Assembly: GCA_937127245.1 (NCBI GenBank)
Contig: CAKZLU010000029.1
Coordinates: 67,502-131,501, forward strand
From: an uncultured Actinomycetes bacterium
GTDB lineage: Bacteria; Actinomycetota; Geothermincolia; Fen-727; JACVIW01
Reading direction: 5' to 3'
DNA length: 64,000 bases
Shown here piece after piece: positions 16,555 to 61,429 of this stretch. The translations under genes and the position numbers were made by a program. The number at the start of each line of letters is the position of its first letter. The stretch's first letter is position 1. Under the pieces are notes generated by a model that had not been told where the DNA came from, searched no databases, and was given only the letters and a program-made list of their open reading frames with translations.

Positions 16555-19200
16555 CTACGCGTACTCGTATCTGTCGATTATGTCCTCCTGAATGGATTTG
16601 CCGAGATCAGTGAAATACGCGCTGTAGCCTGCTACTTTTACGACAAGGTCCCGGTATCTTTCGGGATTCTTCTGAGCGTCTTTCAGGGTTTCGCTTGAGA
16701 CTACGTTGGGCTGGATATGCATGCCGCCAAGGTCAAAATAAGTCTTAATCAGGGCGGCTATCTTCTGAACCCCTTCTTCGCTTTTCAGGCAGGAGGGATG
16801 AATCTTAACGTTCAGCGCCACTCCCCCGGAGAGTTTTGCCTGATTTATCGATGCTACAGATGAGAGGAGCGCCGTAAGACCGTTTCCGCCCCGAATAATG
16901 TTCGATGGCGATATTCCATTTGATGTGGGTTCCCCTCTTTTTCTTCCGTCGGGCGTTGCTCCAAGGTAAAATCCATCGAGCACGTGATTGCCGTAGGAGT
17001 ACATCCCCGCTCGATATCTTCCGCCCCTGACGTTCTTGTGCTTCTCGACTTCATCCACGAAGAACTTGACAATCGTCTTTGCGAGAAGGTCCGACTCTTT
17101 GTCGCCTCTACCGTATTTGTGCGGAGAGTTCAAAAGCCGCATCCGCAAATCCTCTCGTCGCTCGAAGTTGGAAAAGCAGGCGCGAACAAGCTCCTTTAAG
17201 GTAATCTCTTTCCTTTCGAAGACGAACTCGCGAACCGCCATCAGGCTGTCGACGGTCGTCCCCAGACCCCTCGCGATTATCGAGGTAAAATCATATTTTG
17301 CTCCGCCTCCGGTCATGTCCGTTGCGTTTTCAATGCAACCGTCTATGAGCGCAGAAACATATGGGGCGGGGAGCATTTCCATGTAGGCAAGGTCTTTTCC
17401 CTCGATTGCTTTTACGAGGGTAGATATGCAATGTCTCAGTTGGATCTTGAAAGCCTCAAAGAACTGGTCGAAATCCTTAAAATCTTCGGGTCTTCCGGTT
17501 TTCAAGCCTCTTTTCTGCCCGAAGATGGGCGCAGGGTATAGTCCGTTTGTCAGGGTCATGTACAGCACAGCGGGCAGGACTATTTCGTGACCGCCAGGGC
17601 AGGGAAAGCAGTTGTGTCCACCGCTTGTCTCTATGCAGCCCACGATTGTGTAGTCCCTTGCATCTTCTTTTGAAAGCCCGTTGCGTTCGAGGGCTGGAAT
17701 TATTACATCATCGTTGAAGAATGCGTGCCCGCTTGTCTTTCTGAATACCTTAACGGCGCGGTTAAGGAATTCAACTGGCGAGTCGGAGCTGATTCGCACC
17801 GAAAGCTGATTTATCGCTCCGTTCATTCTTTCATAAGCATCGAGCATAAGGTAAGAAAGCTCGTTCGTGGCGTCTGACCCATCCCTCCTCCTGCCGCCAA
17901 TAATCAGGCAGTGCTGACTTACCCCGAGGGTCGCGTTTGTCTCCGCGCCCACTTCAGGAAATAGTGAGATGTTTGCGGTAAGCTTTAAGTTCAACTCCTC
18001 AAGAATTTCAACCGCCTCTTCGATGGTTATTTCACCGTTTAGAAAATCGTTTAAGAAAAGCGGGTATAAATACTGGTCGGCTCTTCCTATGCCGAGCACA
18101 TCGTGCATGCCGTACTGAATCTCACCTACCAGTAACGCTAACCATATCGCTTGGACGCCTTCACGGAATTTTCTTGCCGGGCGTGCAGGGGAGTGCGAAA
18201 GCGTTTCCGCGATGCGTTTAAGTCTTTCAATCTCGCGTATGTCCTCCTGTGAAGATGCCATCTCGATGGCTTTTCTCCTAAGCCTTTCGGCGTATGTTGT
18301 AGCAGCTTCCATGCTGATGATTACGGCCTCGAGAAAAGCCTTCTTTTCTGTGTATGATGGATCCATTTCATCAAGTTTACCGATTCTTTCCCTTGCCCTG
18401 TCACGTATTCCGAGAAATCCTTCCAGGACCACCTTTTCAACACCGAGATGTAGATGACCCTGGACGTCATAACAATAGATGCCCATATTGGGGTTGTTTT
18501 TGGAGATCTCATCCCTTTTTTTCCAGACAAGAATCGCGCGACCGAGCGAGCGCGGTGCCGCCCCCCTTATTCCTGCCATCATTCTTAAATTCCGCTTGCC
18601 CAGATGTTTTGCGAACCGCAACATCTCGTATATCTGCCGGATGGTCCGCAGGGGATCACCTCTTACGGGCTCGATTATTCCTGACTCTGTCCATTTGTCG
18701 CCTTTGAGATCTCTTAAGGTTTTGCCTTCCCAGTAAGGGACAATCTCCTCGAGGAATACTTTCTTGTCTTCCGGATCGATATGAAACGGTCTTGCTTTGG
18801 CTGAAAGCACATCCATTTCCATTTGTAACGCCCTTAAGGAGTCGCCCCTTTCAGGGGCAATGACGGGCGATAAGAACTTGTCTGTTTTATTTCCAACTAT
18901 CCACTCATCCGGATAGATATGAACAGGCTGTTTCTCGCATGTTTCTTTCAAGGCAAGGGCGTTTCTCAAAGCGGGGTGCATTCCCTCGGTTTCCTTGTAC
19001 ACGCGCGTGAAATGTTTCGCCCTCTCAAGACATATCTCGTAAGGGGCATTTAGCAGGCGCTCTTTCAAACGCGCGATTCTCAGGCTGTCGCTTTTCAAGA
19101 GTCTTGCTCTTTCCTCAGTTATGCTCAGCAACTCTTGACCTCCCTTTTTCAACCGACCCTTCCGGTCAGATTTTCTTGTTCGGCTTTTCGTATTTGACAA
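16555..19200 (-). CDS. Glycyl radical enzyme (PFL2/glycerol dehydratase/X-succinate synthase superfamily)
   Basis: 881 aa. The C-terminal glycyl radical motif is VKVAGYSAYF. The catalytic Cys loop is IVGCIETSG. A basic N-terminal extension of about 50 aa is present. Confidence 0.85.
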   Translation of the reverse strand: MSNTKSRTRKSDRKGRLKKGGQELLSITEERARLLKSDSLRIARLKERLLNAPYEICLERAKHFTRVYKETEGMHPALRNALALKETCEKQPVHIYPDEWIVGNKTDKFLSPVIAPERGDSLRALQMEMDVLSAKARPFHIDPEDKKVFLEEIVPYWEGKTLRDLKGDKWTESGIIEPVRGDPLRTIRQIYEMLRFAKHLGKRNLRMMAGIRGAAPRSLGRAILVWKKRDEISKNNPNMGIYCYDVQGHLHLGVEKVVLEGFLGIRDRARERIGKLDEMDPSYTEKKAFLEAVIISMEAATTYAERLRRKAIEMASSQEDIREIERLKRIAETLSHSPARPARKFREGVQAIWLALLVGEIQYGMHDVLGIGRADQYLYPLFLNDFLNGEITIEEAVEILEELNLKLTANISLFPEVGAETNATLGVSQHCLIIGGRRRDGSDATNELSYLMLDAYERMNGAINQLSVRISSDSPVEFLNRAVKVFRKTSGHAFFNDDVIIPALERNGLSKEDARDYTIVGCIETSGGHNCFPCPGGHEIVLPAVLYMTLTNGLYPAPIFGQKRGLKTGRPEDFKDFDQFFEAFKIQLRHCISTLVKAIEGKDLAYMEMLPAPYVSALIDGCIENATDMTGGGAKYDFTSIIARGLGTTVDSLMAVREFVFERKEITLKELVRACFSNFERREDLRMRLLNSPHKYGRGDKESDLLAKTIVKFFVDEVEKHKNVRGGRYRAGMYSYGNHVLDGFYLGATPDGRKRGEPTSNGISPSNIIRGGNGLTALLSSVASINQAKLSGGVALNVKIHPSCLKSEEGVQKIAALIKTYFDLGGMHIQPNVVSSETLKDAQKNPERYRDLVVKVAGYSAYFTDLGKSIQEDIIDRYEYA

Positions 19201-20997: not shown

Positions 20998-23900
20998 TCA
21001 ATAGGAGAAAGCGACCGAAGAGTGAGCCCAGGTCCTCTCATCTCCGTACATAGCCCGCTCGCAAATGATGCTTCCGCCTGTGGATTCGACTTTGGTTGAC
21101 ACGTTGTATGTGGTCACGAATTGTCCTATGTCGAACGTCTTCCTCGAGTTTGCGGGTATCTCAACGCTCTGGAGTTCGTGAGGTTTAACCGCGCCGTCTT
21201 CGGTCATGAGGGTCAGGTTCACTCTTACGCTTCTGTTATTCGGGTTGGCCACCAGTACCCATGTCTCCATGCCGCCTGCTGTCGAGCCCTCCGCGAGATA
21301 CCAGGTTGCCGAAGGAGCTGTGACTCCCACCGAAGAGTGAGCCCAGGTCCTCTCATCTCCGTACATAGCCCGCTCGCAAATGATGCTTCCGCCTGTGGAT
21401 TCGACTTTGGTTGACACGTTGTATGTGGTCACGAATTGTCCTATGTCGAACGTCTTCCTCGAGTTTGCGGGTATCTCAACGCTCTGGAGTTCGTGAGGTT
21501 TAACCGCGCCGTCTTCGGTCATGAGGGTCAGGTTCACTCTTACGCTTCTGTTATTCGGGTTGGCCACCAGTACCCATGTCTCCATGCCGCCTGCTGTCGA
21601 GCCCTCCGCGAGATACCAGGTTGAGGCTTTTGGCTTACCGGGTTTTGGCGGTGGTGTGGGAACTTCGCTTTGCAAGACCTCGAAGCCTTGCGCTTTTCGC
21701 CCGGTCTTGCCATCCGGATTTTCGACAACCACATCCCACTTGCCTGCCTGGGCGCCCTTCAGTTTGAAGCGGCAGGTTATTTTCGTATCGGATACAACAT
21801 CCACGCCCTCTCCCTGTATCGGAGATAAGCCTGATTTCTCAAGCCTTACCCGGGCTCCCGACTTGAAGCCCGTGCCCGCAAGATTCGTTATCTCCACGTA
21901 GCCGTCGTTTAGCCCTGAGGAGGGCGTAATGGAGATTACCACCGGTGCAGGAGTCTCAATTACCTCGAAGCCTTGCGCTTTTCGCCCGGTCTTGCCATCC
22001 GGATTTTCGACAACCACATCCCACTTGCCTGCCTGGGCGCCCTTCAGTTTGAAGCGGCAGGTTATTTTCGTATCGGATACAACATCCACGCCCTCTCCCT
22101 GTATCGGAGATAAGCCTGATTTCTCAAGCCTTACCCGGGCTCCCGACTTGAAGCCCGTGCCCGCAAGATTCGTTATCTCCACGTAGCCGTCGTTTAGCCC
22201 TGAGGAGGGCGTAATGGAGAGAATTTCGGGGTTCTCGTTCCATGTGTAGATCGGGTTCGTTATCGCCACTTCCCAGCCGAGTTGCGTAAGCTGGATGATG
22301 TTTGTTATTGGATTTGCTCCCGGGTCCACCGCGAGGTGGTGAAGTTGAGCCCTATAATAATCGCCTCTCTTTGGCACATCGAAGAATGTGTACTCGAAAC
22401 TATCCGAGCATGCCCATTTGATTTTGAATATCTCCCCGTTCTTGAAGACTATGAGGAGAGGCGGAAGTATGCCAGTGATGCCGGAAGCTCCGGTCACTTT
22501 TACGAGGAATTTCGCTGGTCTGCGAAGCGCTTCGTGCGGAATCGTATCGCCCATCATGAGGCTGTAGGAATCGGGATCTGACTCTGAATACGCGGGCGCC
22601 GCCTTGAACTCTACTTTAGGTCCTTGAGGCTGCAGGCTTATGAAAGCCCTCCCCGCCTTCAGAGCGTCAAGAATGTCGGTCGCGCTTCTGGAACTAGAAA
22701 ATACCCAGGTCGTGGGAATTCCGATATTGTGGTACAGGGTTTGAAGGAAACTTTTTAGATTGTCTGTTCTTTGGGCGTGACTGTCACTTCCGCCAACCAT
22801 GGAGATTTTTCTTCCCTGTTTGACGTAATCGTTATGAATGATGTAAACGGAAGCGTGATTGAAGTTCGGCCAGAAGTAGCGTGAATTCCAAACTTCCATG
22901 GTGTCGGCATCTTTGCTTTCCTCAAACGGGTAAAGCCACAGACAGCACGGTGAACTGGGATGATTTATTGAAATGATTATCCTTTGCCCCGGTTCAGCAA
23001 GCGAGTGTGCGATCCTAATTGCCTCTTGAGCGTTTCCCTCACCCTCGAGCGTAGGTTCTATCGCCGACCAATCAAAAGGCCTGTCGGAGATAATGTTTGC
23101 GTGTCCCCTCGATGTGGTCCATTCAACCCCGTAAAGCAAGGTAAGGATATCTGAGTGAAAACCGGGGTCGTTCCATTGCCCGACGACGTTATGGTCTGTG
23201 AGCGCGAAATAATCAAGTCCCTGACTTTCGGCAGTTGAGATGACATTGCTTACGTCTGAGTCCCCATCGCTATAAGTCGAATGTGCGTGAAGATCGCCTT
23301 TAAGCCACTGTCCCTCAAGCGGGGGAATCGCGCTCATCTTGAGATTGACCCACACTGGTGCCGTCACCGCAAGCTGGACGTCGTGGTCCGGATCATCGTC
23401 GTTGCTGTCCTCGCCTGTGACGCGGACGAAGTAGTAAGATGAATAGAACGCGCTAACGGTGGGGTTCCATGAAACGACCTTTGTTCCGGGCTCGAATTCC
23501 CTTAAAGCAGCGGTCTCCCCCCCATTTGTTATGACTTCGATCTTTTTTATGTCTTCATCATCCTCAACGAAGATGTTCAACTTCACTGAACCGGGATCGA
23601 CTTCGACGCTTGATCCCATCCAAGCGTCCCCACATTTAAGCGCGATTCTCATGTTCGGGTCATCCGTTGAATAGACACGCCTGCTGTTCATCGCCTCAAG
23701 GATGGCTGGCCTGGAAAGCGATGTCGCGATAACTGCCGTCCTGTGGCTGTTCGTTTCCAGAGTGTTGTTGTCTTGGTTGGCAGTCGGCGCGAGCCGCCAT
23801 CCAGTATCGAGGGCTTGTATGTAGTACTTGTGAAACTCCCCGATAGTGTTTCCGGAATCCTTGTTACCTGTCTCGATTGCCCAGACAAGAGATGCTGGCA

Positions 23901-24465
23901 TTTCGGTGGGATACCTCAGGTTTCTGAACAGCCACGGTTCCCTTCCAGGGTGATTGAACTGAGCAATCCCCCCGCTTTGCTTAAGCCATCGGTAAAACTG
24001 CGAGAGAAGAAAGTTCTGGAATATATTCGTAAACGTTGCCGTGTTATAGACATTGATATGTCCGAGTATGGGGTTGCTCCACTCAAACCCTCTCATCGCC
24101 ACGAACACGCCGTCAACGTTGTGCGCGTCGGCAGCGGCACCGGTTTCATCCCACTCTTCCTGGGTCAGGTATTCCGCATTGTCTGTTACCGCATAGAAGT
24201 CATAGCCGGCTTCGTATCTCGCCCATGTGAAAGCTTCGTCAGGTGTGCCCTGACCGTCGGAATAGTTCGTATGGCTGTGGAAGTTGCCGAAGTAAACGTT
24301 CATTCCATTGAAAATGCCAGTATCGGGCGGCGTCTTTACCTCTCCGCCGTTCGATTTGTTCGGAGCGCCGTATGCAGGTAGTGCGAAAAATGAGGCGGTC
24401 AGTAGAATAATAAGGATGAAGGCGACGAATCTGTCTGACAGCCGACGGGTCAATTTCATGTCCAA
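20998..24465 (-). CDS. Large secreted multidomain protein: signal peptide, two PHP (polymerase/histidinol-phosphatase-like metallo-phosphoesterase) domains, two identical IPT/TIG-like repeats, a Pro/Lys linker, and two identical WYLAEGST beta-sandwich repeats
   Basis: The N-terminal signal-like segment ends at ALPAYG-A. PHP metal motifs are HSHTNYSDG and LHAHSTYSDG. The C-terminal repeats are seen at both protein and DNA level. Confidence 0.6.
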   Translation of the reverse strand: MDMKLTRRLSDRFVAFILIILLTASFFALPAYGAPNKSNGGEVKTPPDTGIFNGMNVYFGNFHSHTNYSDGQGTPDEAFTWARYEAGYDFYAVTDNAEYLTQEEWDETGAAADAHNVDGVFVAMRGFEWSNPILGHINVYNTATFTNIFQNFLLSQFYRWLKQSGGIAQFNHPGREPWLFRNLRYPTEMPASLVWAIETGNKDSGNTIGEFHKYYIQALDTGWRLAPTANQDNNTLETNSHRTAVIATSLSRPAILEAMNSRRVYSTDDPNMRIALKCGDAWMGSSVEVDPGSVKLNIFVEDDEDIKKIEVITNGGETAALREFEPGTKVVSWNPTVSAFYSSYYFVRVTGEDSNDDDPDHDVQLAVTAPVWVNLKMSAIPPLEGQWLKGDLHAHSTYSDGDSDVSNVISTAESQGLDYFALTDHNVVGQWNDPGFHSDILTLLYGVEWTTSRGHANIISDRPFDWSAIEPTLEGEGNAQEAIRIAHSLAEPGQRIIISINHPSSPCCLWLYPFEESKDADTMEVWNSRYFWPNFNHASVYIIHNDYVKQGRKISMVGGSDSHAQRTDNLKSFLQTLYHNIGIPTTWVFSSSRSATDILDALKAGRAFISLQPQGPKVEFKAAPAYSESDPDSYSLMMGDTIPHEALRRPAKFLVKVTGASGITGILPPLLIVFKNGEIFKIKWACSDSFEYTFFDVPKRGDYYRAQLHHLAVDPGANPITNIIQLTQLGWEVAITNPIYTWNENPEILSITPSSGLNDGYVEITNLAGTGFKSGARVRLEKSGLSPIQGEGVDVVSDTKITCRFKLKGAQAGKWDVVVENPDGKTGRKAQGFEVIETPAPVVISITPSSGLNDGYVEITNLAGTGFKSGARVRLEKSGLSPIQGEGVDVVSDTKITCRFKLKGAQAGKWDVVVENPDGKTGRKAQGFEVLQSEVPTPPPKPGKPKASTWYLAEGSTAGGMETWVLVANPNNRSVRVNLTLMTEDGAVKPHELQSVEIPANSRKTFDIGQFVTTYNVSTKVESTGGSIICERAMYGDERTWAHSSVGVTAPSATWYLAEGSTAGGMETWVLVANPNNRSVRVNLTLMTEDGAVKPHELQSVEIPANSRKTFDIGQFVTTYNVSTKVESTGGSIICERAMYGDERTWAHSSVAFSY
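21013..21623. repeat. Nucleotide-identical tandem repeat, about 1.9 copies of a 315-bp unit (encodes the WYLAEGST... repeats on the minus strand)
   Basis: Direct comparison shows 21016.. matches 21331.. exactly. The identical plus-strand shadow ORFs 21121..21414 and 21436..21624 confirm this. Confidence 0.9.
21678..22225. repeat. Nucleotide-identical tandem repeat, about 1.9 copies of a 285-bp unit (encodes the IPT/TIG-like ITPSSGLNDGYVEITNLAGTGFKSG... repeats)
   Basis: Direct comparison shows 21681.. matches 21966.. exactly. Shadow ORFs 21521..21901 and 21929..22186 share identical C-terminal 72 aa. Confidence 0.9.
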
Positions 24466-24650
24466 TCACCCCCGCGATGATAAAACATCGAAATAAGCGA
24501 AAAATTACGGCAGACGAGGGAAAAATGAATGGCTTTGCACGCCTTTAGATCCGACTATCACCAATTCGTTTCAATCCTCCCGTCTGAAGCAAAGCAAATA
24601 TATATCATGAAAATGTTTTTTTCAACCATAAAGGACCTAAGGAGGAGAAC

Positions 24651-24767
24651 ATGAACAATACTCGCTCGGCAGGAAGAGCGCTAAAGCCTCAAGTTGTTTG
24701 TTATGGGCAATTCGCCGGAAAGATGACATCGGGGGTTTGCGAGAGAATTTTGGGCATCTTCGTATAA
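24651..24767 (+). CDS. Candidate small ORF (38 aa, MNNTRSAGRALKPQVVCYGQFAGKMTSGVCERILGIFV) upstream of hdrC
   Basis: A strong SD, TAAGGAGGAGAAC, sits immediately before the ATG in the divergent promoter region. It is below the ORF-track length cut-off. Confidence 0.3.
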   Translation: MNNTRSAGRALKPQVVCYGQFAGKMTSGVCERILGIFV

Positions 24768-24941
24768 TGTTTTTGGCGCTCCAGACTTTACGGTTTGAAA
24801 CGGTTCTAAAGCCAATTCGAGACTAAAACATGGACATGTTTCACATTGAGTGGTAAAAATCTCTTGATTTTTTCATAAAATGAAACTTAAAATGACTAAT
24901 GAGTCAATATTGGTATCGATTCTTTTTATTGGGAGTAAAGG

Positions 24942-25487
24942 ATGCCTGATTCTGTTACTACGATTGAAAAGGAGATAGGAAAAAGAATCGGCGAAAAGCC
25001 ATGGCTCTGCTATCAATGCAAGAAGTGCACCGCAGGATGTCCTGTTTCCTTCGCGATGGACCTTATGCCTCATGAAATCATGAACCTTCTGCGCTGGAGC
25101 GCCAGCGACAGGATACTCGCTTCTTCGACAATCTGGCTTTGCGCCTCTTGTGAGACGTGTTCGGTTCGCTGTCCCAACGGAATTGACATCGCGGGTGTGA
25201 TGGACGCGCTCCGATCCATCTCTATCGATAAGCATTACCGTCCTGGCGAACCGCTCGTAACCGCGTTTCACCGCTCTTTTCTCGCAGGGATAATGGGCGC
25301 GGGAAGAACAAACGAACCTGTTTTGATCGGTATTTACAAAATTCTGAGCGGGCGCCTGCTGGATGACATCGGTCTCGGGGTAAAAATGATTCTGAAGAGA
25401 AAGATCAAACCCGTGCCCCGATTTGTGAAAGACAGGGCTGCGATCCGCAGAATCTTCAGGGAAGCGAAAGCCCGGAGGACGAAATGA
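24942..25487 (+). CDS. hdrC: Heterodisulfide reductase subunit C-like (two [4Fe-4S] clusters)
   Basis: CYQCKKCTAGCP and CASCETCSVRCP motifs. Its stop overlaps the hdrB start (ATGA). Confidence 0.8.
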   Translation: MPDSVTTIEKEIGKRIGEKPWLCYQCKKCTAGCPVSFAMDLMPHEIMNLLRWSASDRILASSTIWLCASCETCSVRCPNGIDIAGVMDALRSISIDKHYRPGEPLVTAFHRSFLAGIMGAGRTNEPVLIGIYKILSGRLLDDIGLGVKMILKRKIKPVPRFVKDRAAIRRIFREAKARRTK

Positions 25488-26362
25488 GTCTGAAATACGC
25501 TTATTTTCCAGGATGTTCCCAGGTGAGTTCCGCCGAAGAATACGGGCTTTCGACAGAGGCGGTATGCGAGTCGCTCGGGATTGAGCTTGTAGAACTCGAC
25601 GACTGGAACTGCTGTGGTGCCTCGTCCGCCCACATGACCGACGAGTTCCTTTCCGCCGCTCTACCCGGTCGGAATCTTGCGATCGCGAGAGAAACGGGTC
25701 TGGATTTGCTTACGGTTTGCGCCGCCTGCTACTCGCGGCTCACCATGTCCAACGCAAAGATTAAAAGTGACGACGCCCTACGTGAACGAATAGAGCGGGC
25801 AGTGGGCGCTGACCCTCGTTTCGAGGGGAAGGTACGGCATTTGCTCGACGTTATAGTGAATGACGTGGGTATTCCCCAAATAAAAAAATTTGTGAAAAAT
25901 GACCTTTCAAGCATCAAGGCCGTTCCTTATTACGGTTGTCTTCTGGTCAGACCTCGGGAAGTTTGCTTTTGTGATTCTGCGGAAAATCCCACTGAACTCG
26001 ACCTTCTTATTTCCGCTCTGGGTTTAGAGGTTAGGCAATGGTCTTATAAAACGGACTGTTGCGGGGGTAGTCTTTCACTTTCGAGGAATGATATTGTGCA
26101 GAGGCTTGTGAACCGCATATTCGAGCGCGCTGTTGAGGCAGGCGCTGATTTGATCGTTACCGCATGTCCCATGTGTCTTGCCAATCTAGAGATGCGACAG
26201 AAACCTGGAAAGCTGAGGTTCGAGCAGGTTTTCACCGTGCCGGTTCTTTATTTCACCGAACTTATTGGTCTTGCCATGGGACTTGACGGTTGGGAGAAAT
26301 GGCTTGGCGCTCATCTCATAGATCCATTTCCAGTCCTTAAAAAGATAGAAGCTCTCTCGTAG
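25484..26362 (+). CDS. hdrB: Heterodisulfide reductase subunit B-like (two CCG cysteine-rich domains)
   Basis: The N-terminal CCG domain has DWNCCGAS...CAACYSR. The C-terminal CCG domain has KTDCCGGS...CPMCLANL. Confidence 0.85.
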   Translation: MSLKYAYFPGCSQVSSAEEYGLSTEAVCESLGIELVELDDWNCCGASSAHMTDEFLSAALPGRNLAIARETGLDLLTVCAACYSRLTMSNAKIKSDDALRERIERAVGADPRFEGKVRHLLDVIVNDVGIPQIKKFVKNDLSSIKAVPYYGCLLVRPREVCFCDSAENPTELDLLISALGLEVRQWSYKTDCCGGSLSLSRNDIVQRLVNRIFERAVEAGADLIVTACPMCLANLEMRQKPGKLRFEQVFTVPVLYFTELIGLAMGLDGWEKWLGAHLIDPFPVLKKIEALS

Positions 26363-26498
26363 TATGCGGTTTCATTTGGAATTTTTGGATGTCGGTAAAG
26401 AGAAAATTGGCGCCGTGCCGATTCAAAGGTTTCTCCTTCTGGCCAAGTAATGTTGTGCGCCGAGCGTAATATTTGAGTTTTTCATATCGAGGTAAGCA

Positions 26499-29400
26499 AT
26501 GAACGGAAAAATTTACGAAACCCAAACTGAGGGAGGAAAATCAGAGCGTGTTTACAGCTCTAAACCGGTTGGGTCAGTGATGGTGATTGGGGGAGGAATA
26601 GCCGGCGTACAAGCATCTCTGGATTTAGCAGATCTCGGTTACAGGGTTTACCTTGTTGACTCCGCTCCTTCAATAGGCGGGGTAATGGGCCAGCTTGATA
26701 AGACGTTTCCCACGAACGACTGCTCTATGTGTATTCTCTCGCCTAAACTAGTCGAGGCGGGGTCTAACGACAACATCGAAATAATCACTCTTGCCGAGAT
26801 TATGGATATAACCGGAGAACCCGGGAACCTCGAGGTGATTCTTAAGAGGAACCCCAGGTTTGTGGATATTGACAAATGCACCGGTTGTGGAATATGCACG
26901 GAACACTGCCGAGTCAAGGTTAAAGATCCTTACAATGCGGGTCTTGCGCGGGTTCCGCTCATAAGAGTTCCATTCCCTCAAGCCGTGCCGGGCGCGGCTT
27001 TCATAGACCCGACCAAATGCCTCCAGATATTGAAGGGTAAATGCGGAGAATGCCAGAAATACTGCCCCGCTGGAGCGATAGATTTTTCCGACAAAGAAAG
27101 GACCGATAAGATTGAAGTTGGCTCGGTCATTATAGCATGCGGTTTCAGCCCTTTTGATCCCCACAAGACTGAGGAGTACGGATACGGAACCTATGAAAAC
27201 GTGATAACCAGCCTGGAGTTTGAGCGCATTCTCGCCGCCAATGGACCAACCGGTGGTCACATCTTGAGGCGCTCCGATTCACAATCAGCACAGAAGATAG
27301 CGTTCATTCAGTGCGTGGGCTCGAGGGATTCCAGGATCGGGAACACGTACTGCTCTTCTGTCTGCTGCATGTATGCCACCAAGCAGGCGATTATCGCCAG
27401 GGAGCACGACAGACGTATTCAATCCACCATTTTTTACATAGATTTTCGCGCCCACGGCAAGGGATTTGAGGAGTACCGCTCGAGAGCTGAGAATGAGCAC
27501 GGGGTGCGATACGTAAGGTGTCTTGTGTCTGCGGTGAAGGAGATGCAGCCTTCCAAGCGCCTGCTCCTTGTCTTCATAAACGAGGAGAATCAGTTTGTCG
27601 AGGAAGAGTTCGATCTTGTCGTGTTGAGTGTTGGCATAACGAGCGGGATTGATGCGCTGGCGACAAGACTCGGGATCCGGGTTAATTCCCACGGTTTTAT
27701 ACAAGTGCCGAAACCAGCCAGCTTGGAGACATCAAGACCGGGGGTATATGTTTGTGGAGCGGCTGAGGGTCCCAAAGACATACCGGAATCGGTAATCCAG
27801 GCAAGTGCGGCTGCCGGAAGCGCCTCCTCCTTGCTCTGCCCCTCGAGGGGTGAGCTAACGGTAAAAAGGGAGTATCCTCCCGAAAGGGACGTGCGAGGGG
27901 ATGAGCCGAGAATCGGAGCGATAATATGCCGCTGCGGAACTAACATTGGCGGCGTGGTTGATGTGCCTGCTGTGGTTGAGTACGCCAGAACTCTCCCGGG
28001 TGTGGTGTTTGCTGAAGAGAGGCTTTACGCGTGCAGTCAGGACGCGCAAGTATGGATAAAGGAAATAATCGAGAAGCATAAGCTAAACAGGCTTGTGGTT
28101 GCTTCATGCACCCCGAGGACTCACCAGCCTTTGTTCAGGGAGACTGTTCGTTTGGCGGGGCTCAATAAGTATCTGTTCGAGATGGCTAACATCAGGGAGC
28201 ACTGCTCCTGGGTTCATATGGATGAGCCAGGACTGGCGACTGAAAAAGCCAAGCAGCTGGTGCTGATTGCTGTTAAGAAAGCGTCCCTTCTTGAACCACT
28301 GGAAGAAGGGGTTTCTCCCGTTACGCCTGTCGCTTTGGTGATCGGCGGCGGTCCTGCGGGAATGTCAGCAGCCCTCAGGCTTGCCGATGCTGGTTTCAAG
28401 ACCCATCTTGTCGAGCAAGAGGAAGAGCTCGGCGGCAACATGAGGCATGTGAGGATGACCCTGGAAGGGGATAACGCGCGTGAAATACTCGAAGAAATGA
28501 TTCGATCTGTCATGAATCATCCCCTTGTGGAAGTTCATTTAACCTCGAAGGTTGCCTCCATTGAGGGCTACGTTGGGAGCTACACTTCAGTCATCGAGAA
28601 ATGCGCTAACTCAGCGGGGCGTTCAAACCCCGATATTGAATCGGCAAGTCTTGGTGATGATGTGTCCGAAGATGGGACCGTGAGAGTTGATCACGGCATA
28701 GTGGTGGTCGCTGTCGGCGCGGAGGAGTACAGGCCGAAATACGGCGAGTACATGTACGGTCTTGATCAAAGAGTGATAACGCAAACCGAGCTTGAGCGCC
28801 GGATTTTCGATGAGCCGGAATCACTGGAAGGTGTAAAGAACGTGGTGATGGTCCAGTGCGTGGGATCACGCAACGAGGAACATCCTTACTGCTCTCGGAT
28901 TTGCTGCGGGGTGACACTGAAAAACGCTTGCGAATTGAAGAAGTTTCTGCCCGGAGCGAATGTGACAATATGTTACAGGGATGTGAGGGCATATGGTTTC
29001 AACGAGGAAAAGTACCTTGACGCACGTGAGAGAGGAGTGAGGTTTGTCCGCTTCACACAGGAAGACCAACCTTCGGTAAGCGCGGCTATAGGAAGACTTG
29101 AGGTGGTCGTGAAAGACAGGAACATGCGCGATGAGGCAATCACCATTTTCCCGGACCTCCTCGTCCTTTCGTGCGGAATCGTGGCGCGCGGGGGATCGCG
29201 GGAACTTGCGTCCATGCTCAAGGTCCCCCTTACTTCTGATGGATTCTTCCTGGAAGCTCACGTGAAGCTGAGACCGATTGAGTTTGCGACCGATGGCATC
29301 TTTCTTGCGGGCATGGCGCATTATCCAAAAACGATCAGGGAGAGCATCGCCAGCGCCCAGGCCGCGGCCGCGAAGGCAGAAGCGGTTCTTTCGAAAGACA

Positions 29401-29666
29401 AGATTGTAACCGAGGGCATAGTCGCGCGAATAGACCCCGAGATTTGCTCGGGATGTGGCCAATGCATCGACCTTTGCTCGTACGGAGCTTTGGAGTTTGA
29501 CCCCTCGATGAGAGTCGCGAGAGTTAACCCTTCGCTGTGCAAGGGCTGCGGGGCTTGCAGTGCGGCTTGTCCTTCAGGAGCGAATCAACTTCTCGGCTTT
29601 AGACCCTGTCAAATCTACGCGCAGATTGAAGCTTCATGCGCTCTTCTGGAGGCGGGTGGTCAATGA
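26499..29666 (+). CDS. hdrA: HdrA-like flavoprotein, 1055 aa, apparent tandem HdrA-HdrA fusion with a C-terminal 2x[4Fe-4S] ferredoxin domain
   Basis: There are two GxGxxG FAD motifs (VIGGGIAGVQASLDLA near the N-terminus and VIGGGPAGMSAALRLA near the middle). There are two CVGSR(D/N)...YCS..CC cluster motifs. An inserted CTGCGICTEHC ferredoxin, a mid-protein CRCG..ASCTPR Cys-rich domain and a C-terminal CSGCGQCIDLCS...CKGCGACSAACP domain are also present. Confidence 0.85.
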   Translation: MNGKIYETQTEGGKSERVYSSKPVGSVMVIGGGIAGVQASLDLADLGYRVYLVDSAPSIGGVMGQLDKTFPTNDCSMCILSPKLVEAGSNDNIEIITLAEIMDITGEPGNLEVILKRNPRFVDIDKCTGCGICTEHCRVKVKDPYNAGLARVPLIRVPFPQAVPGAAFIDPTKCLQILKGKCGECQKYCPAGAIDFSDKERTDKIEVGSVIIACGFSPFDPHKTEEYGYGTYENVITSLEFERILAANGPTGGHILRRSDSQSAQKIAFIQCVGSRDSRIGNTYCSSVCCMYATKQAIIAREHDRRIQSTIFYIDFRAHGKGFEEYRSRAENEHGVRYVRCLVSAVKEMQPSKRLLLVFINEENQFVEEEFDLVVLSVGITSGIDALATRLGIRVNSHGFIQVPKPASLETSRPGVYVCGAAEGPKDIPESVIQASAAAGSASSLLCPSRGELTVKREYPPERDVRGDEPRIGAIICRCGTNIGGVVDVPAVVEYARTLPGVVFAEERLYACSQDAQVWIKEIIEKHKLNRLVVASCTPRTHQPLFRETVRLAGLNKYLFEMANIREHCSWVHMDEPGLATEKAKQLVLIAVKKASLLEPLEEGVSPVTPVALVIGGGPAGMSAALRLADAGFKTHLVEQEEELGGNMRHVRMTLEGDNAREILEEMIRSVMNHPLVEVHLTSKVASIEGYVGSYTSVIEKCANSAGRSNPDIESASLGDDVSEDGTVRVDHGIVVVAVGAEEYRPKYGEYMYGLDQRVITQTELERRIFDEPESLEGVKNVVMVQCVGSRNEEHPYCSRICCGVTLKNACELKKFLPGANVTICYRDVRAYGFNEEKYLDARERGVRFVRFTQEDQPSVSAAIGRLEVVVKDRNMRDEAITIFPDLLVLSCGIVARGGSRELASMLKVPLTSDGFFLEAHVKLRPIEFATDGIFLAGMAHYPKTIRESIASAQAAAAKAEAVLSKDKIVTEGIVARIDPEICSGCGQCIDLCSYGALEFDPSMRVARVNPSLCKGCGACSAACPSGANQLLGFRPCQIYAQIEASCALLEAGGQ

Positions 29667-30172
29667 TGAGTGAAGCACGCGGCTCAAGCGTGAAAATACC
29701 CGATGACGTGAGAATCGTGGCTTTCCTTTGCAACTGGTGTTCGTATGCCGGGGCTGACCTTGCTGGTGTGAGCCGCATGCAGTACCCCCCAAACGTCGTG
29801 GGGATAAGGGTTATGTGTACGGCCACGGTATCTCCGTATCACGTGCTTAAAGCTCTGCAGATGGGAGCGGATGGCGTATTGATCGCCGGTTGCCACATCG
29901 GGGATTGTCATTACCTGAAAGGTAACTACATGACTTACAAAAGATACCTTATCTTGCGAGAAATTCTTCGCTTCGCGGGCATTAACGAGAAGAGAGTTCG
30001 GCTCGAGTGGATTTCCGCGGCTGAGGGCGAGAAATTTGCTGAAGTGATAAGGAGTTTTACCGAAGAGGTTAGAGAGGCTGGATTGAGCCCCTTGAGAAAG
30101 AACGAGGTCATTAAGTCGGAGTTTGGCGAAAAGCTCAAAAACGCTTTCCGTTCACTTGAGGTTGTCAAATGA
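29663..30172 (+). CDS. mvhD: MvhD/FlpD-like methyl-viologen-reducing hydrogenase delta subunit homolog ([2Fe-2S])
   Basis: The conserved pattern is FLCNWCSY...VMCTA...AGCHIGDCHY. The ATG at 29663 overlaps the hdrA stop (ATGA); the longer frame begins at 29636. Confidence 0.8.
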   Translation: MMSEARGSSVKIPDDVRIVAFLCNWCSYAGADLAGVSRMQYPPNVVGIRVMCTATVSPYHVLKALQMGADGVLIAGCHIGDCHYLKGNYMTYKRYLILREILRFAGINEKRVRLEWISAAEGEKFAEVIRSFTEEVREAGLSPLRKNEVIKSEFGEKLKNAFRSLEVVK

Positions 30173-30310
30173 AAGCCAAATTTCTCATGAAAAAGCCCAT
30201 AGGTACTGTCTCCGTCTGGGAATCGGAGGACTTTTGTCTTTCGTTTGGCTCTTTGTTGAGCGGGCGCAACGGACTTGCAAGTATCTTATGAGCGGAAGCG
30301 GAGGAATATC

Positions 30311-31117
30311 GTGTCGATAAGAGAAAAGGCGCGTCAATTGTTCGCGGAGGGAGTTGATGGGGTTCTCGCTTTCAAGAGAACGGATGGCGTTTGCATACCC
30401 CATCTCTTTACCAAAACCGAGGTCGAGGAGATTTGCAAGGACGTTCCCGCAGATCAAAGATACCCGGTTGCCGGAATCGTCCGCCGCATTTTCCTTTCCG
30501 GGCTTGCCGGAAAAATTGGCGTCGTGGCCAGGGGATGCGACGAGAGGGCACTTATCGAACTGGGCAAGCAGGGTCAAATCGATTTTGACCTTTTATCAAT
30601 CATCGGGGTCGCCTGCAGTGAGGAACAGGCAAGATACTGCGAGTGCTCAAAGCCTTATCCCTCACGCATAGATGTTGGCTCAAGATTTGAGGGAATATCG
30701 GTTTCTGAAAAAGTCCGCGCCGTCGAATCCATGGAAGGCGATGAGAGACTCGCCTACTGGCTTGCTCAATTCGCTTCTTGCCTGAAGTGTATGGGTTGCA
30801 GAAATATCTGTCCCGTTTGCTATTGTGTTGAGTGCTCTCTCGAGGATGAAAACCTCGTCCGGCGCGGGAGCGTACCTCCTGACTGGCCTGTCTTCCACCT
30901 TCTCCGGGCGGTTGACATGGCTTCGAGGTGCATTGATTGCGGACTGTGCGAGGAAAGTTGTCCATCGGGTATTCCGCTCAGAACGCTTTACAAAAAGGCA
31001 ACCGAAATTGTTAAAGAATTGTTCGACTATGAACCTGGCGCGGATATGACCCAAAGGAGCCCGCTTGGAACTATCGGGGATCAAAGCGAGCTGCCCGGCG
31101 GGGCATTTGAGGCGTGA
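30311..31117 (+). CDS. Iron-sulfur subunit, 2x[4Fe-4S] ferredoxin core with FrhB/FdhB-like flanks (putative electron-transfer subunit between Fdh and Hdr)
   Basis: CLKCMGCRNICP and CIDCGLCEESCP motifs. The likely start is the GTG at 30311, after a GGAGGA RBS; the ORF track begins at TTG 30275. Confidence 0.5.
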   Translation: MSIREKARQLFAEGVDGVLAFKRTDGVCIPHLFTKTEVEEICKDVPADQRYPVAGIVRRIFLSGLAGKIGVVARGCDERALIELGKQGQIDFDLLSIIGVACSEEQARYCECSKPYPSRIDVGSRFEGISVSEKVRAVESMEGDERLAYWLAQFASCLKCMGCRNICPVCYCVECSLEDENLVRRGSVPPDWPVFHLLRAVDMASRCIDCGLCEESCPSGIPLRTLYKKATEIVKELFDYEPGADMTQRSPLGTIGDQSELPGGAFEA

Positions 31118-31280
31118 AAGGAGTCCGTAACTGTTTTCAAAATTTGGTTTTTTGCATGAAAGACTCAACTTAATCACTAATCCGGTAGGGTAATTTTAAA
31201 AATAAAAAAGTGGCGCGGAGACAATATGCCGCGTGTAAGTTTGTGGAAGTGCTTGGATCAATCGATTGTCAGGAGAGTCT

Positions 31281-33341
31281 ATGTCAGATAAGAACTTAGA
31301 TTTTAGCTATACCACGGTTCCCACTATCTGTCCCTACTGCGGAACAGGTTGCGGGATGCTTCTCGAAGTTATCGGGGGAAAAATATCAGGCGTGCTTCCC
31401 ATGAAAGGGCACCCGGTATCCGACGGTTGTCTCTGCCTGAAAGGCTGGACGGCGCACGAGTTTGTCTCATCTCCAGACAGACTTGCCCGCGCGCTTGTGG
31501 GTAAGGATGGAGATTTCAAGGAGGTCGGATACACCGAAGCTGTTGCGCTCGTGGCAGATGCGATGCGCGAAACTGTTGAGAATCACGGCCCTGACAGCTG
31601 CGCTTTTGTCGCATCGGCAAGATGCACCAATGAAGAGAATTATTTGATGAGTAAACTTGCGCGTTTCGCGGTGGGCACAAACAACATAGATCACTGCGCG
31701 CGTTTGTGACACAGCCCAACGGTCGCCGGTCTGGCGACGGTGTTCGGTTCTGGTGCTATGACAAACTCGATAGGTGAGCTATCGGATGCCGATGTAATTT
31801 TGCTGACAGGATCGAACACCAGCGAACAGCACCCGGTCATTGCGGGGAAGATATTGGACGCGGTCCGGAAGGGCGCGAAACTGCTCATATTCGACCCTCG
31901 CATCATTCATCTTACCTCATTTGCTCACATGCATTTACGGCAAAAGCCGGGTACGGACATAGTCTGGATAAACGCTTTAATGAAAGTGATCATTGATGAG
32001 GACCTCCTGGACAGAGAGTTCGTAAACTCAAGAACCGAGGGCTTTGAAGAGCTTTCGCGTTCGCTGGAAAACTATTCTTTGGAGCGCGCGGCTGAAATAT
32101 GCGGAATAGAAGCTTCAGACCTCAGGGAAGCGGCGAGGATTTTCGCAATGGCTGACAAGGCGTCGATAGTCTATTGCATGGGGATAACTCAGCACGTTTT
32201 CGGCACCAGGAATGTACTGGCACTCGCTAACCTCGCGCTGTTGACAGGAAACGTTGGCAGACTCTCCACCGGTGTAAATCCGCTCCGCGGCCAGAACAAT
32301 GTGCAGGGAGCTTGCGATGTGGGGGCGCTTCCAAATGTTCTTACTGGTTACCAGAAGGTTGACGACGATGTTGCGAGGGGGAATTTTGAAAGCGCCTACG
32401 GAAAGAAACTACCTTCAAAACCTGGATTGACTCTTATTGAAATAATGAACGCTTGTCTTGAGGGAAAGATCAAGTTTCTCTACATAATGGGTGAAAACCC
32501 GATGATAACCGAGCCGGATTTAAAGCACGTCGAAGAAGCGCTCTCGGCGGTTGATTTTCTGGTGGTTCAGGACATATTTCTTACCGAAACCGCCAGGCTC
32601 GCTCACGTGGTGCTTCCTGGTAGCTGCTGGGCGGAAAAGGACGGTACATTTACGAACACGGAGCGTCGGGTTCAAAGAATAAGGAAAGCTATCGATCCCC
32701 CCGGAGATGCCAGACTGGACTGGCAGATCATCTGTGACATAGCGAAAGCTTTCGGTTCAGATTATTTCGAATATTCTTCTGCCGAGGAGATATTTGACGA
32801 GATAGCGAAATTAACTCCCTCGTACTCGGGGATGAGTTATCAAAGGCTTTCCACGCAAGGTTTGCAGTGGCCGTGTCCTTCAGTTGACCATCCGGGCACC
32901 GTTTACCTGCACGAGACAGGTTTTGCAAGGGGTAAAGGACTTTTCAGCGTGGTTGAATACGATCCCGAATCTCAGAAGCTCGAAGAACACTATCCTTTCG
33001 TGCTCATGACTGGCAGGGTAGGATTTCAGTATCACTCCGGAACGATGTCCAGACGTTCACGCGCGCTCGCGCGTGAGGTACCCGAAGCTTACGTCGAGAT
33101 CAGTCCTCAGGATGCGGCAAGACTCGGTATTTCAGATCGAGATAAAGTAAAAGTTGTAAGCCCCAACGGCGAGCTCACCGTCCGCGCATTTGTTACTGAA
33201 AGGGTTCGTCCCGGCGAGATATTCATTCCTTTCCACTTTTCTGAAGCTCCCGCGAACATACTTATAAACAGCAGAGAGCTTGACCCACAAAGCAAGATAA
33301 CCTCAATGAAGTTTTGTCCGGCGAGGATAGAGAAGGCATAA
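31281..33341 (+). CDS. fdhA: Formate dehydrogenase alpha subunit (molybdopterin oxidoreductase), selenocysteine-containing; in-frame TGA at 31707..31709
   Basis: The N-terminal Fe-S motif is CPYCGTGCG...C. ORFs 31266..31709 and 31740..33341 share one frame, joined by a single TGA. It sits in the canonical HCARL-U-HSPTVAGL motif (compare E. coli FdhF VCHxRxCHGPSVA with U140). Molybdopterin-binding and C-terminal cap regions follow. Confidence 0.85.
31710..31745 (+). promoter_or_regulatory. SECIS-like hairpin immediately 3' of the UGA (stem GTCGCC/GGCGAC 31722-31727/31733-31738, apical loop GGUCU)
   Basis: Read from the sequence. The hairpin starts about 13 nt after the UGA, and its apical loop contains GGUC, as in bacterial SECIS elements. 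Confidence 0.55.
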
Positions 33342-40227: not shown

Positions 40228-41157
40228 TTAAGGCGCGTTTTCATAAGCGGATTCGATAGCGTTTTCTTCCTGCATGCTTGGAGGAACTTCTATTTCCTCT
40301 GATCTTCTCGAAAGGATGATGGTCCCCGCTAAGACGAGCACAAATCCTAAGATTCTCATAGCAGCAAGCGTCACGTTTTTGGGTAGTTTCTCATAGAGAA
40401 TGACCATCCCGAGCAGTATCGGGACAAGTTGCGCTATTCCTGCCTGGATTGGCACCACTATAACGGCGAGACCACGCTGAAGTGCCGCCTGCCAGATAAT
40501 GAAGGCAGGGATGCACACCCCGGCCCAACCGAGGACGTAGGGGTTGAAGATATAGCCTTTTGAGAAGTTATAAAGAAGGATGCGGGCAAAAATGGCGGTC
40601 ATGCCGTAAAGCAGACCGACTGAGATCCCCAGTCCTATGGATTCTTTGCTCTGTCCTTTGGACCTCATAGCAAGCGGGAATAAGATGGCAAGGACCACTA
40701 TACCTGCGCAGACGAGCCAAACCGCCCAGGGGTTAAACTTGAGCGTATCCTTCGCTCCGCTTTCGGAGACCTTTTCGGCAAGACTTATACCTATGAGGAT
40801 GACTCCCGTGATGTTTATACCTATTGCGAAAAGGTCGATTTTTCTCGGTTTTTCGCCGAGGTTCTTTATCGCAAGATATGCGAGAAACGCGACCCCGGAA
40901 GCCACAATTGGCGTCACAATGGAAACCTCTATGAAGACGAGCGAAACGCTGTATAGCACAGATGATATCAACATTACCGCCAAGGAGATGAGCCATGTCT
41001 TACTGCTGAGGAAAGCCTTTATGATACTTAAGATTTCCCTCGACGCTTTAAAGGTTACCCTCGGGAGCTTATCCACAGCGACTTTCTGGAGATATGCGGT
41101 GTAGTTAAATCCGATTGACGCTGCGACGGCGCAGAAAACAGCGAAAACCGTTATCAT
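40228..41157 (-). CDS. DMT-superfamily (EamA-like) integral membrane transporter
   Basis: About 10 hydrophobic segments. It shares a LAYLAIKNLGEKPRKID segment with the adjacent paralog. Confidence 0.5.
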   Translation of the reverse strand: MITVFAVFCAVAASIGFNYTAYLQKVAVDKLPRVTFKASREILSIIKAFLSSKTWLISLAVMLISSVLYSVSLVFIEVSIVTPIVASGVAFLAYLAIKNLGEKPRKIDLFAIGINITGVILIGISLAEKVSESGAKDTLKFNPWAVWLVCAGIVVLAILFPLAMRSKGQSKESIGLGISVGLLYGMTAIFARILLYNFSKGYIFNPYVLGWAGVCIPAFIIWQAALQRGLAVIVVPIQAGIAQLVPILLGMVILYEKLPKNVTLAAMRILGFVLVLAGTIILSRRSEEIEVPPSMQEENAIESAYENAP

Positions 41158-61411: not shown

Positions 61412-61429
61412 TAGGAGGTGCAGCCTTCG

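Follow-up and report, generated by a model that had tools for sequence, protein, structure and literature searches.

Our analysis of a 64,000-nucleotide stretch of DNA from an uncultured actinobacterium of the class Geothermincolia (contig CAKZLU010000029.1, positions 67,502 to 131,501; hereafter the window) revealed six co-directional genes on the forward strand at 24942-33341: hdrC, hdrB, hdrA, mvhD, an fdhB-like iron-sulfur (FeS) gene and fdhA (Table 1). The cluster probably encodes a reversible, electron-bifurcating complex that couples formate to ferredoxin and a disulfide, in the manner of the Fdh-MvhD-Hdr complex of methanogens, whose bifurcating activity is established (Costa et al. 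2010/2013, as cited in PMC6085437). For each of the six proteins, the nearest homologues of solved structure belong to methanogen Fdh/Mvh/Elp-Hdr complexes. The gene anatomy, the cofactor motifs, a selenocysteine (Sec) codon with its selenocysteine insertion sequence (SECIS), homology to solved subunits and synteny are established here; long open reading frames (ORFs), very low E-values and a gene order kept across phyla exclude chance as an explanation of the cluster. The cluster type is already known, though uncharacterised, and what is new is a member in a new phylum.

Layout and gene identities

The coordinates of the six genes agree with those in the preliminary description of this DNA, and both ATGA overlaps reported there, between the hdrC stop and the hdrB start (25484-25487) and between the hdrA stop and the mvhD start (29663-29666), are visible in the sequence itself. 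Domain searches placed five of the products in the families to which that description had assigned them (HdrC, HdrB, HdrA, MvhD and a Sec-containing FdhA); the remaining "ferredoxin-like" subunit did not keep its name and is read below as a shortened FdhB. The earlier statement that the window holds no mvhAG hydrogenase also stood, as none of its ORFs of hydrogenase size matched a [NiFe]-hydrogenase family.

The FeS gene most likely starts at the GTG at 30311, which a GGAGGA site precedes and which the public record also calls, rather than at the TTG at 30275. Between mvhD and this gene the NCBI record annotates a 40-aa ORF (30169-30291, forward strand) whose ATG overlaps the mvhD stop, again as ATGA. 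Considered as a small subunit or carrier, it had no homologue in the close relatives L004, L084 and L085 or at any other locus, and it is probably spurious. The spacers hdrB/hdrA, mvhD/fdhB and fdhB/fdhA are 136-163 nt long, that between hdrB and hdrA being 136 nt, and these internal spacers vary in length and sequence among relatives.

Table 1 Genes, HdrA domains and signals of the hdrCBA-mvhD-fdhBA cluster (positions in the window; aa, amino acids).
Feature	Position	Strand	Description
Candidate operon promoter	24864-24893	+	-35 TTGATT, 18-nt spacer, -10 TAAAAT; ~50 nt 5' of hdrC
hdrC	24942-25487	+	181 aa; two CxxCxxCxxxCP motifs
hdrB	25484-26362	+	292 aa; two CCG domains, the non-cubane cluster site
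hdrA	26499-29666	+	1055 aa; Pyr_redox_2, FAD and Fer4 domains (Pfam)
hdrA module 1	26499-27878	+	aa 1-460; FAD/TrxR domain, inserted 2x[4Fe-4S] ferredoxin domain, Cys75/Cys78
hdrA N-terminal-type domain	27900-28298	+	aa 468-600, mid-protein; invariant C477, C479, C512, C537, C569
hdrA module 2	28299-29666	+	aa 601-1055; second FAD/TrxR domain, then C-terminal 2x[4Fe-4S] ferredoxin domain
mvhD	29663-30172	+	169 aa; [2Fe-2S] connector
fdhB-like FeS gene	30311-31117	+	268 aa; GTG start
fdhA	31281-33341	+	686 aa; in-frame UGA 31707-31709; predicted cytoplasmic Sec Mo/W-bisPGD catalytic subunit
SECIS element	31704-31762	+	core hairpin 31722-31738, GUCGCC-GGUCU-GGCGAC

The catalytic subunit and its selenocysteine codon

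FdhA carries the Molybdop_Fe4S4, Molybdopterin and Molydop_binding domains (Pfam) and scored 823 bits against the NCBIfam model of formate dehydrogenase alpha subunits (TIGR01591, cut-off 666). Its nearest solved relatives are FdhA of 9t1s (741 bits), FdhF of HDCR (7qv7, 694 bits) and 7bkb_D (651 bits). Both active-site motifs are present, HCARL-U-HSPTV with the Sec-His pair and PLRGQNNVQG with the arginine, so that the protein combines the Mo/W-bisPGD fold, the N-terminal [4Fe-4S] site and the Sec, His and Arg residues of a catalytic FdhA. No Tat-type N-terminus could be read from its sequence.

The claim that fdhA is a Sec gene was borne out on several counts. The TGA at 31707-31709 occupies the same column in 46 FdhA orthologues from many lineages, whose genes come right after that of the FdhB-like protein, and five others have Cys there; this column, in which Sec and Cys alternate, sits in the conserved motif DHCARL-x-H. 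The SECIS hairpin lies 15 nt after the UGA, and its helix is 93% paired over 45 distinct orthologous sequences. None of 500 shuffles reached the observed values of pairing and covariation, and sliding the partner columns abolished the signal. The closing pair (positions 21-27) occurs as AU in 20 sequences, CG in 20 and UA in four, at positions that are synonymous third bases of Ala and Leu codons; the loop keeps G22, G23, C25 and U26 in every sequence and has U or G at position 24. An E-value scan gave a full-length match to Rfam SECIS_3 (RF01989; 49.3 bits, E=3.7e-9) that falls below the family's gathering score of 63. As a single sequence the element did not fold into a significantly more stable structure than its shuffles (z=-0.98), so that the evidence for it comes from covariation. 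On this comparative evidence, the in-frame UGA is a true Sec codon.

Gene calls at NCBI, ENA and JGI split fdhA at the TGA into fragments of 142 and 527 aa, which would fit a pseudogene broken by a stop codon. We give that explanation virtually no credence: the frame stays open on either side of the TGA, the TGA recurs at one column in so many orthologues, the closest relative is among the five with Cys, and the hairpin covaries at synonymous sites and matches SECIS_3. Given the conserved TGA and the SECIS, the two-ORF split in the public annotations is an annotation artefact. Among the closest relatives, the Ca. Geohydrothermomicrobium loci L004 (1333-3384) and L084 (14762-16825) encode Cys, whereas the window and L085 encode Sec; judging from these alignments, the Sec/Cys switch is recent and lies within one family.

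A shortened FdhB and the MvhD adaptor

The FeS subunit had no NCBIfam match and only generic Fer4 matches in Pfam. Searched against PDB sequences with phmmer, it matched only beta subunits of methanogen formate dehydrogenases in Hdr complexes (9t1s_M, 1.6e-30; 7bkb_E, 1.2e-28; 8rvu_E). It aligns to FdhB in two pieces, residues 14-103 with FdhB 36-125 and residues 104-248 with FdhB 231-376, so that about 105 FdhB residues are skipped. The FrhB-type module that binds flavin adenine dinucleotide (FAD) and F420 is missing: among 16 members of the FeS-subunit family, none matched FrhB_FdhB_N and one matched FrhB_FdhB_C, at E=0.14 (Pfam). Fifteen cysteines are invariant among 76 homologues, including a CxxCxxCxxxCPxCxCxxC block common to methanogen FdhB. 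An AlphaFold model built with these 76 homologues (pLDDT 85.6) gave only two significant matches in Foldseek, 7bkb_E and 8rvu_E; the top match, 7bkb_E (E=9.5e-13, TMq 0.69, TMt 0.47), is covered over about two thirds of FdhB, which fits an FdhB subset. We read the FeS subunit, from alignment and model together, as a shortened FdhB that may serve as an electron wire without the FAD/F420 side branch.

MvhD matches PF02662 (FlpD) over its full length (E=2e-52) and scored 150-160 bits against the VhuD/MvhD chains of Hdr complexes (9sw2_D, 160 bits), with the Cys motifs kept. The cluster thus has a [2Fe-2S] adaptor of the MvhD/VhuD type directly beside HdrA, its gene ATGA-coupled to hdrA. In a protein at NCBI (P0226, 449 aa), MvhD (PF02662) and the shortened FdhB (FdhB-short) are naturally fused, which argues for direct contact between the two.

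A fused HdrA

HdrA aligns to chain A of 5ODC, whose residue numbering is used for comparison here, in three stretches (E=3e-191). Residues 27-382 correspond to 5odc_A 146-497 (360 bits), residues 468-618 to 5odc_A 2-152 (173 bits) and residues 876-1045 to 5odc_A 477-648. Module 1 has neither the N-terminal domain nor the C-terminal ferredoxin domain, and its Cys75/Cys78 correspond to Cys194/197 of 5ODC. Module 2, with Pfam matches to FAD-binding (613-671) and Fer4 (977-1028) domains, includes a divergent FAD domain (613-875) that lacks both the inserted ferredoxin domain and the KTFPTNDCSxC motif of Cys197.

Ligand invariance was judged on 38 homologues at 53-79% identity. In module 1 the invariant residues are G31/G33/G36, C75, C78, C127/130/133/137, C174/182/185/189, C272/285/289/290, E242 and K295, and in module 2 they are G616/618/621, C787/798/802/803, E766, K808, C983/986/989/993 and C1014/1017/1020/1024. 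The GxGxxG and TrxR-domain cluster motifs are therefore invariant in both modules. Glu356/Lys409 of 5ODC, reported to be key for bifurcation (PMC12054007), likewise have counterparts in both (E242/K295 and E766/K808), and the FAD and FeS motifs expected of HdrA are present. All the elements of a bifurcating HdrA (FAD, the Glu/Lys pair, the N-domain cluster with Cys197, and both ferredoxin domains) are found in the one chain, split over its two modules, and the protein is a fused, two-module HdrA of the kind called type II (PMC12054007, PMC9012536).

The two modules are 32% identical to each other, which rules out that the long HdrA arose by recent tandem duplication and marks it as paralogues fused long ago. 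Direct repeats in the DNA, weak and some 1540 nt from each other (27292-27322 and 28837-28867; 27348-27368 and 28887-28907) encode the CVGSR/YCSxxCC cluster motifs of the two modules and are all that is left of that duplication at the DNA level. For the whole chain, AF2 gave a model with a pTM of 0.86, indicative of a compact and fixed arrangement; HdrA chains were the best matches to its fold.

In the HdrA homodimer, the N-domain cluster is completed by the partner's Cys197 and leads to the partner's inserted ferredoxin domain, and tandem or fused HdrAs show complementary loss of Cys197 and the N-domain (PMC9012536). The complementary losses in the two modules here suggest, by the same logic, that the fused HdrA would by itself correspond to an asymmetric dimer in which only one low-potential exit, to ferredoxin, is left. 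The HdrABC-MvhAGD structure is ascribed to 'M. wolfeii' in PMC9012536 and to Methanothermococcus thermolithotrophicus in the PDB description of 5ODC/5ODH.

HdrB and HdrC

HdrB matches PF02754 in two stretches (E=3e-25) and aligns end-to-end with 5ODC_B (E=2e-45) with all ten cluster cysteines kept, so that both of the CCG domains originally ascribed to it are present. It also scored 160 bits against SdhE of methylmenaquinol:fumarate reductase (MFR). HdrC has two [4Fe-4S] motifs, matches Fer4_17 (E=1.7e-10) as well as Fer4_8 and Fer4_9 (Pfam), and is similar to HdrC of 8rvv, 5odc and 7bkb at E ~1e-10. Its best NCBIfam matches, the N-terminal part of QmoC and TIGR03290, are both below equivalog cut-offs. 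With all ten cysteines of HdrB kept, the chemistry of its site is likely conserved.

Host and distribution

The DNA of the window also stands in public records as contig DAINBG010000001.1 of the metagenome-assembled genome GCA_036733065.1 (NCBI) and in one metagenome each at ENA (ERZ27245459) and JGI (3300010288). Among species-representative genomes the closest locus is that of Ca. Geohydrothermomicrobium daggyaiense (Actinomycetota, class Geothermincolia), with an FdhB-like protein 68% and an FdhA 76% identical to those in the window, followed downstream by an aminotransferase gene (72%) and an HMGL-like gene in the same order. The relative L084, whose HdrA is 79% identical, shares its surroundings with the window all the way from the CCA enzyme gene to that of the HMGL-like protein. 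Since synteny with Ca. Geohydrothermomicrobium reaches into the flanking genes, the host is bacterial, as had been supposed. All close relatives (L084, L085) have hdrCB-hdrA-mvhD-fdhBA in the same colinear order.

The MvhD-FdhB core occurs in more than 200 species genomes of three bacterial phyla, and the FdhB-short family comprises at least 757 clusters at 90% identity. A search for long HdrA scored 8000 candidates, all at E<=1e-20, and the best 120 were nearly all 1000-1100 aa long. Synteny was counted over the best 80 of at least 214 confirmed loci, one genome per species, with loci that have enough flank as denominators. These 80 are labelled as Thermodesulfobacteriota or its orders, Deltaproteobacteria, Chloroflexota, Actinomycetota (including Solincola) and one archaeon. 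MvhD is encoded directly 5' of FdhB-short in 69 of 74 loci and a long HdrA upstream of it in 58 of 67, while FdhA follows directly 3' in 47 of 71. The full colinear six-gene set was found in eight (L036, L037, L038, L043, L051, L054, L061 and L071), labelled Actinomycetota, Anaerolineae/Anaerolineales, Syntrophaceae, Thermodesulfobacteriota and 'delta proteobacterium'.

Partners of the HdrA-MvhD-FdhB-short trio vary. In a Syntrophobacter sp. (L035, 681-12265), a locus retrieved with the FdhB-short query, it is accompanied by NfnA/NfnB-like and HdrD-like proteins and a NuoG-like molybdopterin protein without Sec or Cys. NuoE/NuoF-like genes precede the trio in some Thermodesulfobacteriota (L006, 3632-6689; L020, 650-2506), and in L012 (6647-10801) it stands alone. 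Together with the P0226 fusion, this variety suggests that MvhD-FdhB-short looks like a general adaptor module, of which the version with Sec-FdhA is the commonest form.

Comparison with known systems

Bacterial loci of this type have been described before. Desulfobacterium autotrophicum HRM2 has hdrA/L-mvhD-fdhB-fdhA loci (V/VI; Strittmatter et al. 2009, PMC2702500), and a Sec-containing 'HdrBCA-MvhD-FdhBA' was reported in the Chloroflexi DscP3 and in Desulfobacula toluolica Tol2 (Sewell et al. 2017, PMC5736913). Among complete genomes, the list of Poudel et al. (2018, PMC6085437) has those two Proteobacteria as its sole bacterial carriers of 'Bf Fdh', with a role stated to be unknown. We retrieved homologous loci from Desulfobacula, Desulfobacteraceae and Anaerolineae. 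The cluster in the window belongs with them: in a non-methanogen, co-directional genes of the same content encode a Sec-FdhA and an FeS-only 'FdhB' downstream of mvhD, with the same predicted role. Domains, homologues and synteny thus agree with the formate-driven bifurcating complex put forward in the preliminary description, while the novelty implied there was overstated, since the same cluster is described in PMC2702500, PMC5736913 and PMC6085437. The window differs from DscP3, in which hdrB and hdrC are fused, and from many deltaproteobacterial loci, which have a second HdrA-MvhD pair upstream. It also differs from the previously described bacterial clusters in its phylum, Actinomycetota (Geothermincolia). 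In the literature searched we found neither a paper describing the cluster in Actinomycetota nor biochemistry on any bacterial member, which makes it a new-phylum member of an uncharacterised kind.

The methanogen FdhAB-MvhD(VhuD)-HdrABC complexes (Methanococcus maripaludis; Methanospirillum hungatei, 7BKB; 9T1S) have the same six subunit types, and the best or near-best PDB matches of FdhA, MvhD, HdrA, HdrB and HdrC are subunits of these complexes. Formate as donor, the MvhD adaptor and the C-terminal cluster domain of FdhB are common to both. Unlike the methanogen complexes, the one predicted here has a bacterial host, with no sign of CoM/CoB biosynthesis genes within the window or 10 kb beyond each end, an FdhB without the FAD/F420 module, a 1055-aa, two-module HdrA in place of a homodimer of ~650-aa chains, and Hdr subunits that score below CoB-CoM equivalog cut-offs.

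Archaeal type II HdrA clusters, the hdrABC-mvhD-fdhB-Molybdop loci of ANME and Methanolobus (PMC12054007, PMC9012536) and Elp-Hdr (8RVU), share the fused HdrA, with two TrxR/FAD domains carrying the key Glu/Lys and with complementation between Cys197 and the N-domain, as well as MvhD, FdhB-like and FdhA-like partners. They are otherwise a mirror image of the window: there the FdhA-like protein is dead and FdhB has an F420 site, whereas here FdhA has Sec, His and Arg and FdhB lacks the flavin/F420 part. The half with the N-domain also comes first in ANME HdrA3/4, by the description in PMC9012536, and second here.

Two further bacterial systems are partly alike. MetFV-HdrABC-MvhD of Moorella thermoacetica has a bacterial HdrABC-MvhD with a fused two-module HdrA (per PMC9012536), but its partner is a methylene-tetrahydrofolate reductase and its reductant NADH, where the window has a formate dehydrogenase. 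In the HdrABC/HdrL cluster of Syntrophobacter fumaroxidans (Sfum_0819-0824; PMC5947623), MvhD and an FdhB-like FeS protein lie beside HdrA-type proteins, and the proteins of this MvhD/FdhB-like/Hdr cluster were detected in the proteome (PMC5947623). Unlike the window, it combines them with an HdrD-like protein and with modules of the NAD(P)H type, NfnAB/GltD-like and NuoG-like (the latter with Gly or Arg where Sec would be), and it has no catalytic FdhA; L035 is a related locus.

Proposed mechanism and alternatives

We infer that the products assemble into one complex, and likewise the path that electrons take across its clusters, the act of bifurcation, the physiological direction and the type of acceptor. 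The products would form one soluble cytoplasmic complex, FdhA-FdhB(short)-MvhD-HdrA(fused)-HdrC-HdrB, in which formate would be oxidised at the Sec-Mo/W-bisPGD site of FdhA. Electrons would pass through the [4Fe-4S] cluster of FdhA and then the clusters of the shortened FdhB, which, having lost the FAD/F420 side branch, would be a pure wire. After bifurcation, the low-potential electron may travel from the N-type domain cluster of module 2, completed by Cys78 of module 1, to the inserted ferredoxin domain of module 1 and on to ferredoxin. The other would run downhill via HdrC to the two non-cubane clusters of HdrB and a disulfide-type acceptor.

Several observations weigh against this formate-oxidising, bifurcating complex or parts of it. 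The Hdr subunits fall short of the NCBIfam equivalog cut-offs for CoB-CoM heterodisulfide reductase (HdrA 975 against 1100; HdrB, TIGR03288, 176 against 345; HdrC 58 against 160) and are not orthologous to its subunits by this measure, which makes CoM-S-S-CoB an improbable substrate. When the ORFs of 85 loci were clustered all against all, no conserved neighbour emerged that could be a disulfide carrier (DsrC/TusE, thioredoxin or a lipoyl protein); all that came out were Hdr/Fdh parts, modules of the NuoEF/Nfn type and genes unrelated to them. Because both FAD sites of HdrA are intact, a single bifurcating flavin is something we infer. Spacers of the lengths given above leave room for internal promoters. 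Of the 38 loci among the best 80 that have enough flank, just nine have hdrB no more than 10 kb from the MvhD-FdhB core, so the core often works without adjacent HdrBC. The missing biochemistry on bacterial members, mentioned above, belongs here too.

The main rival is the same complex running in reverse, in which reduced ferredoxin and a dithiol would be confurcated to turn CO2 into formate, for the Wood-Ljungdahl pathway's methyl branch or for interspecies formate transfer. We consider this possible, with a distinctly smaller probability than formate oxidation. Described Actinomycetota related to Geothermincolia have genes for the Wood-Ljungdahl pathway as well as Rnf and MetFV-Hdr clusters (PMC7325909, PMC12917137), and confurcation to formate has been proposed both for ANME HdrA-FdhAB (PMC9012536) and for Syntrophobacter Hdr complexes (PMC5947623); FdhA, moreover, is nearly as close to the FdhF of the CO2-reducing HDCR as to methanogen FdhA. 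By our thermodynamic reasoning, however, the average potential of ferredoxin and dithiol lies well above that of CO2/formate unless formate is very low, and the window and 10 kb on either side hold no Wood-Ljungdahl, Rnf or formate-transport genes (nor selenocysteine-machinery genes).

Two other arrangements seem to us less probable still. FdhAB-MvhD-HdrA and HdrBC might be functionally separate, HdrA reducing ferredoxin and some other acceptor while HdrCB serves another partner. This would suit the 29 of 38 loci with sufficient flank in which hdrB is missing within 10 kb, the trio alone in L012, the HdrD-like protein in L035 and the gap between hdrB and hdrA. We think it unlikely, as the six genes are colinear in L084, L085 and eight distant loci, both HdrA modules retain the TrxR-domain cluster through which, according to PMC9012536, electrons reach HdrBC, and a conserved promoter-like site is found upstream of hdrC only. 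The complex might also be a non-bifurcating formate oxidoreductase, with HdrA as a conduit or ordinary flavoprotein: bifurcation is not readable from sequence, and 6tjr_A (sHdr) is among the HdrA matches. HdrA-like proteins that are not known to bifurcate exist, the sHdr of sulfur oxidisers among them. Yet 6tjr matches one TrxR core only, with a score far below that of methanogen HdrA, and the input ferredoxin domain, the low-potential exit, the HdrC-facing cluster (a junction per PMC9012536) and the E356/K409 equivalents are all conserved, so that we regard this second arrangement as very unlikely.

Significance

Among the unexplained redox modules of anaerobic bacteria, few are as widespread as HdrABC-like complexes, and the high-potential substrate of these complexes outside methanogens is a long-standing open question. 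The locus described here adds an example from a third bacterial phylum, both clean and minimal, with a complete Sec-FdhA, an apparently wire-only FdhB and a fused HdrA with, it appears, one exit, and its compact subunit set would make it a good target for heterologous expression or cryo-EM. The MvhD-FdhB-short core, with its more than 200 species-level genomes, is far commoner than the 'two Proteobacteria' of the 2018 complete-genome survey suggested. By itself the locus neither reveals the acceptor nor changes current understanding.

Geothermincolia are not known to be methanogens or sulfate reducers, and described relatives carry the Wood-Ljungdahl pathway. We offer one speculative and rather doubtful extension: Geothermincolia HdrBC might reduce a new thiol/disulfide couple, a small-molecule heterodisulfide or a protein carrier that is neither CoM-S-S-CoB nor DsrC, and the complex might be the main ferredoxin-reducing engine on formate. 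If true, this would be a new energy-coupling redox couple in bacteria, and the reversed module order, going by the published description of the archaeal proteins, would mean that the HdrA fusion arose independently of archaeal type II.

Transcription signals and neighbouring genes

Consensus scans for promoters and terminators gave as many matches as expected by chance, and only a site conserved in relatives was retained. In L084 and L085, both hexamers of the candidate operon promoter and the nearby blocks ATGGACAT and TGATAAAAA are kept, and elsewhere the 476-nt spacer upstream of hdrC has diverged; this conservation suggests that the TTGATT/TAAAAT site may act as the operon promoter. The consensus scan found no convincing forward-strand terminator inside the cluster, its sole match being a weak hairpin at 31780 within fdhA. 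Co-transcription of the cluster is likely on this evidence.

Compared with L084 and L085, the upstream spacer has two conserved blocks, 24576-24613 and 24825-24906. The latter contains the TTGATT/TAAAAT pair with ATGGACAT and TGATAAAAA, which could be a regulator site, and the former overlaps a minus-strand promoter-like site of the divergent gene. A 38-aa ORF 5' of hdrC (24651-24767, forward strand), which encodes two cysteines and has a strong ribosome-binding site, AGGAGGAG, was set aside as it is not conserved in L084 or L085. Over the whole window, Rfam at gathering thresholds and ARAGORN gave no matches.

A glycyl radical enzyme of 881 aa (16555-19200, reverse strand) was considered as a source of formate and rejected. 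It is of the PFL2/3 dehydratase type, scoring 582 bits on TIGR01774 against 115 bits on the model of true pyruvate formate-lyase, and is absent at that position in L084; no activating enzyme was seen beside it.

Divergent from hdrC, a 1155-aa ORF (20998-24465, reverse strand) encodes CehA/McbA-type PHP metallohydrolase, TIG and DUF5719 domains. The NCBI record, which calls only small fragments there, including opposite-strand ORFs, is probably mis-annotated in this region; L084 has a 953-aa gene. Three long ORFs elsewhere in the window had no Pfam or NCBIfam match, two on the reverse strand (40228-41157, 309 aa; 41351-42241, 296 aa) and one of 841 aa on the forward strand (61418-63943), which corresponds to an 837-aa gene in the NCBI record.

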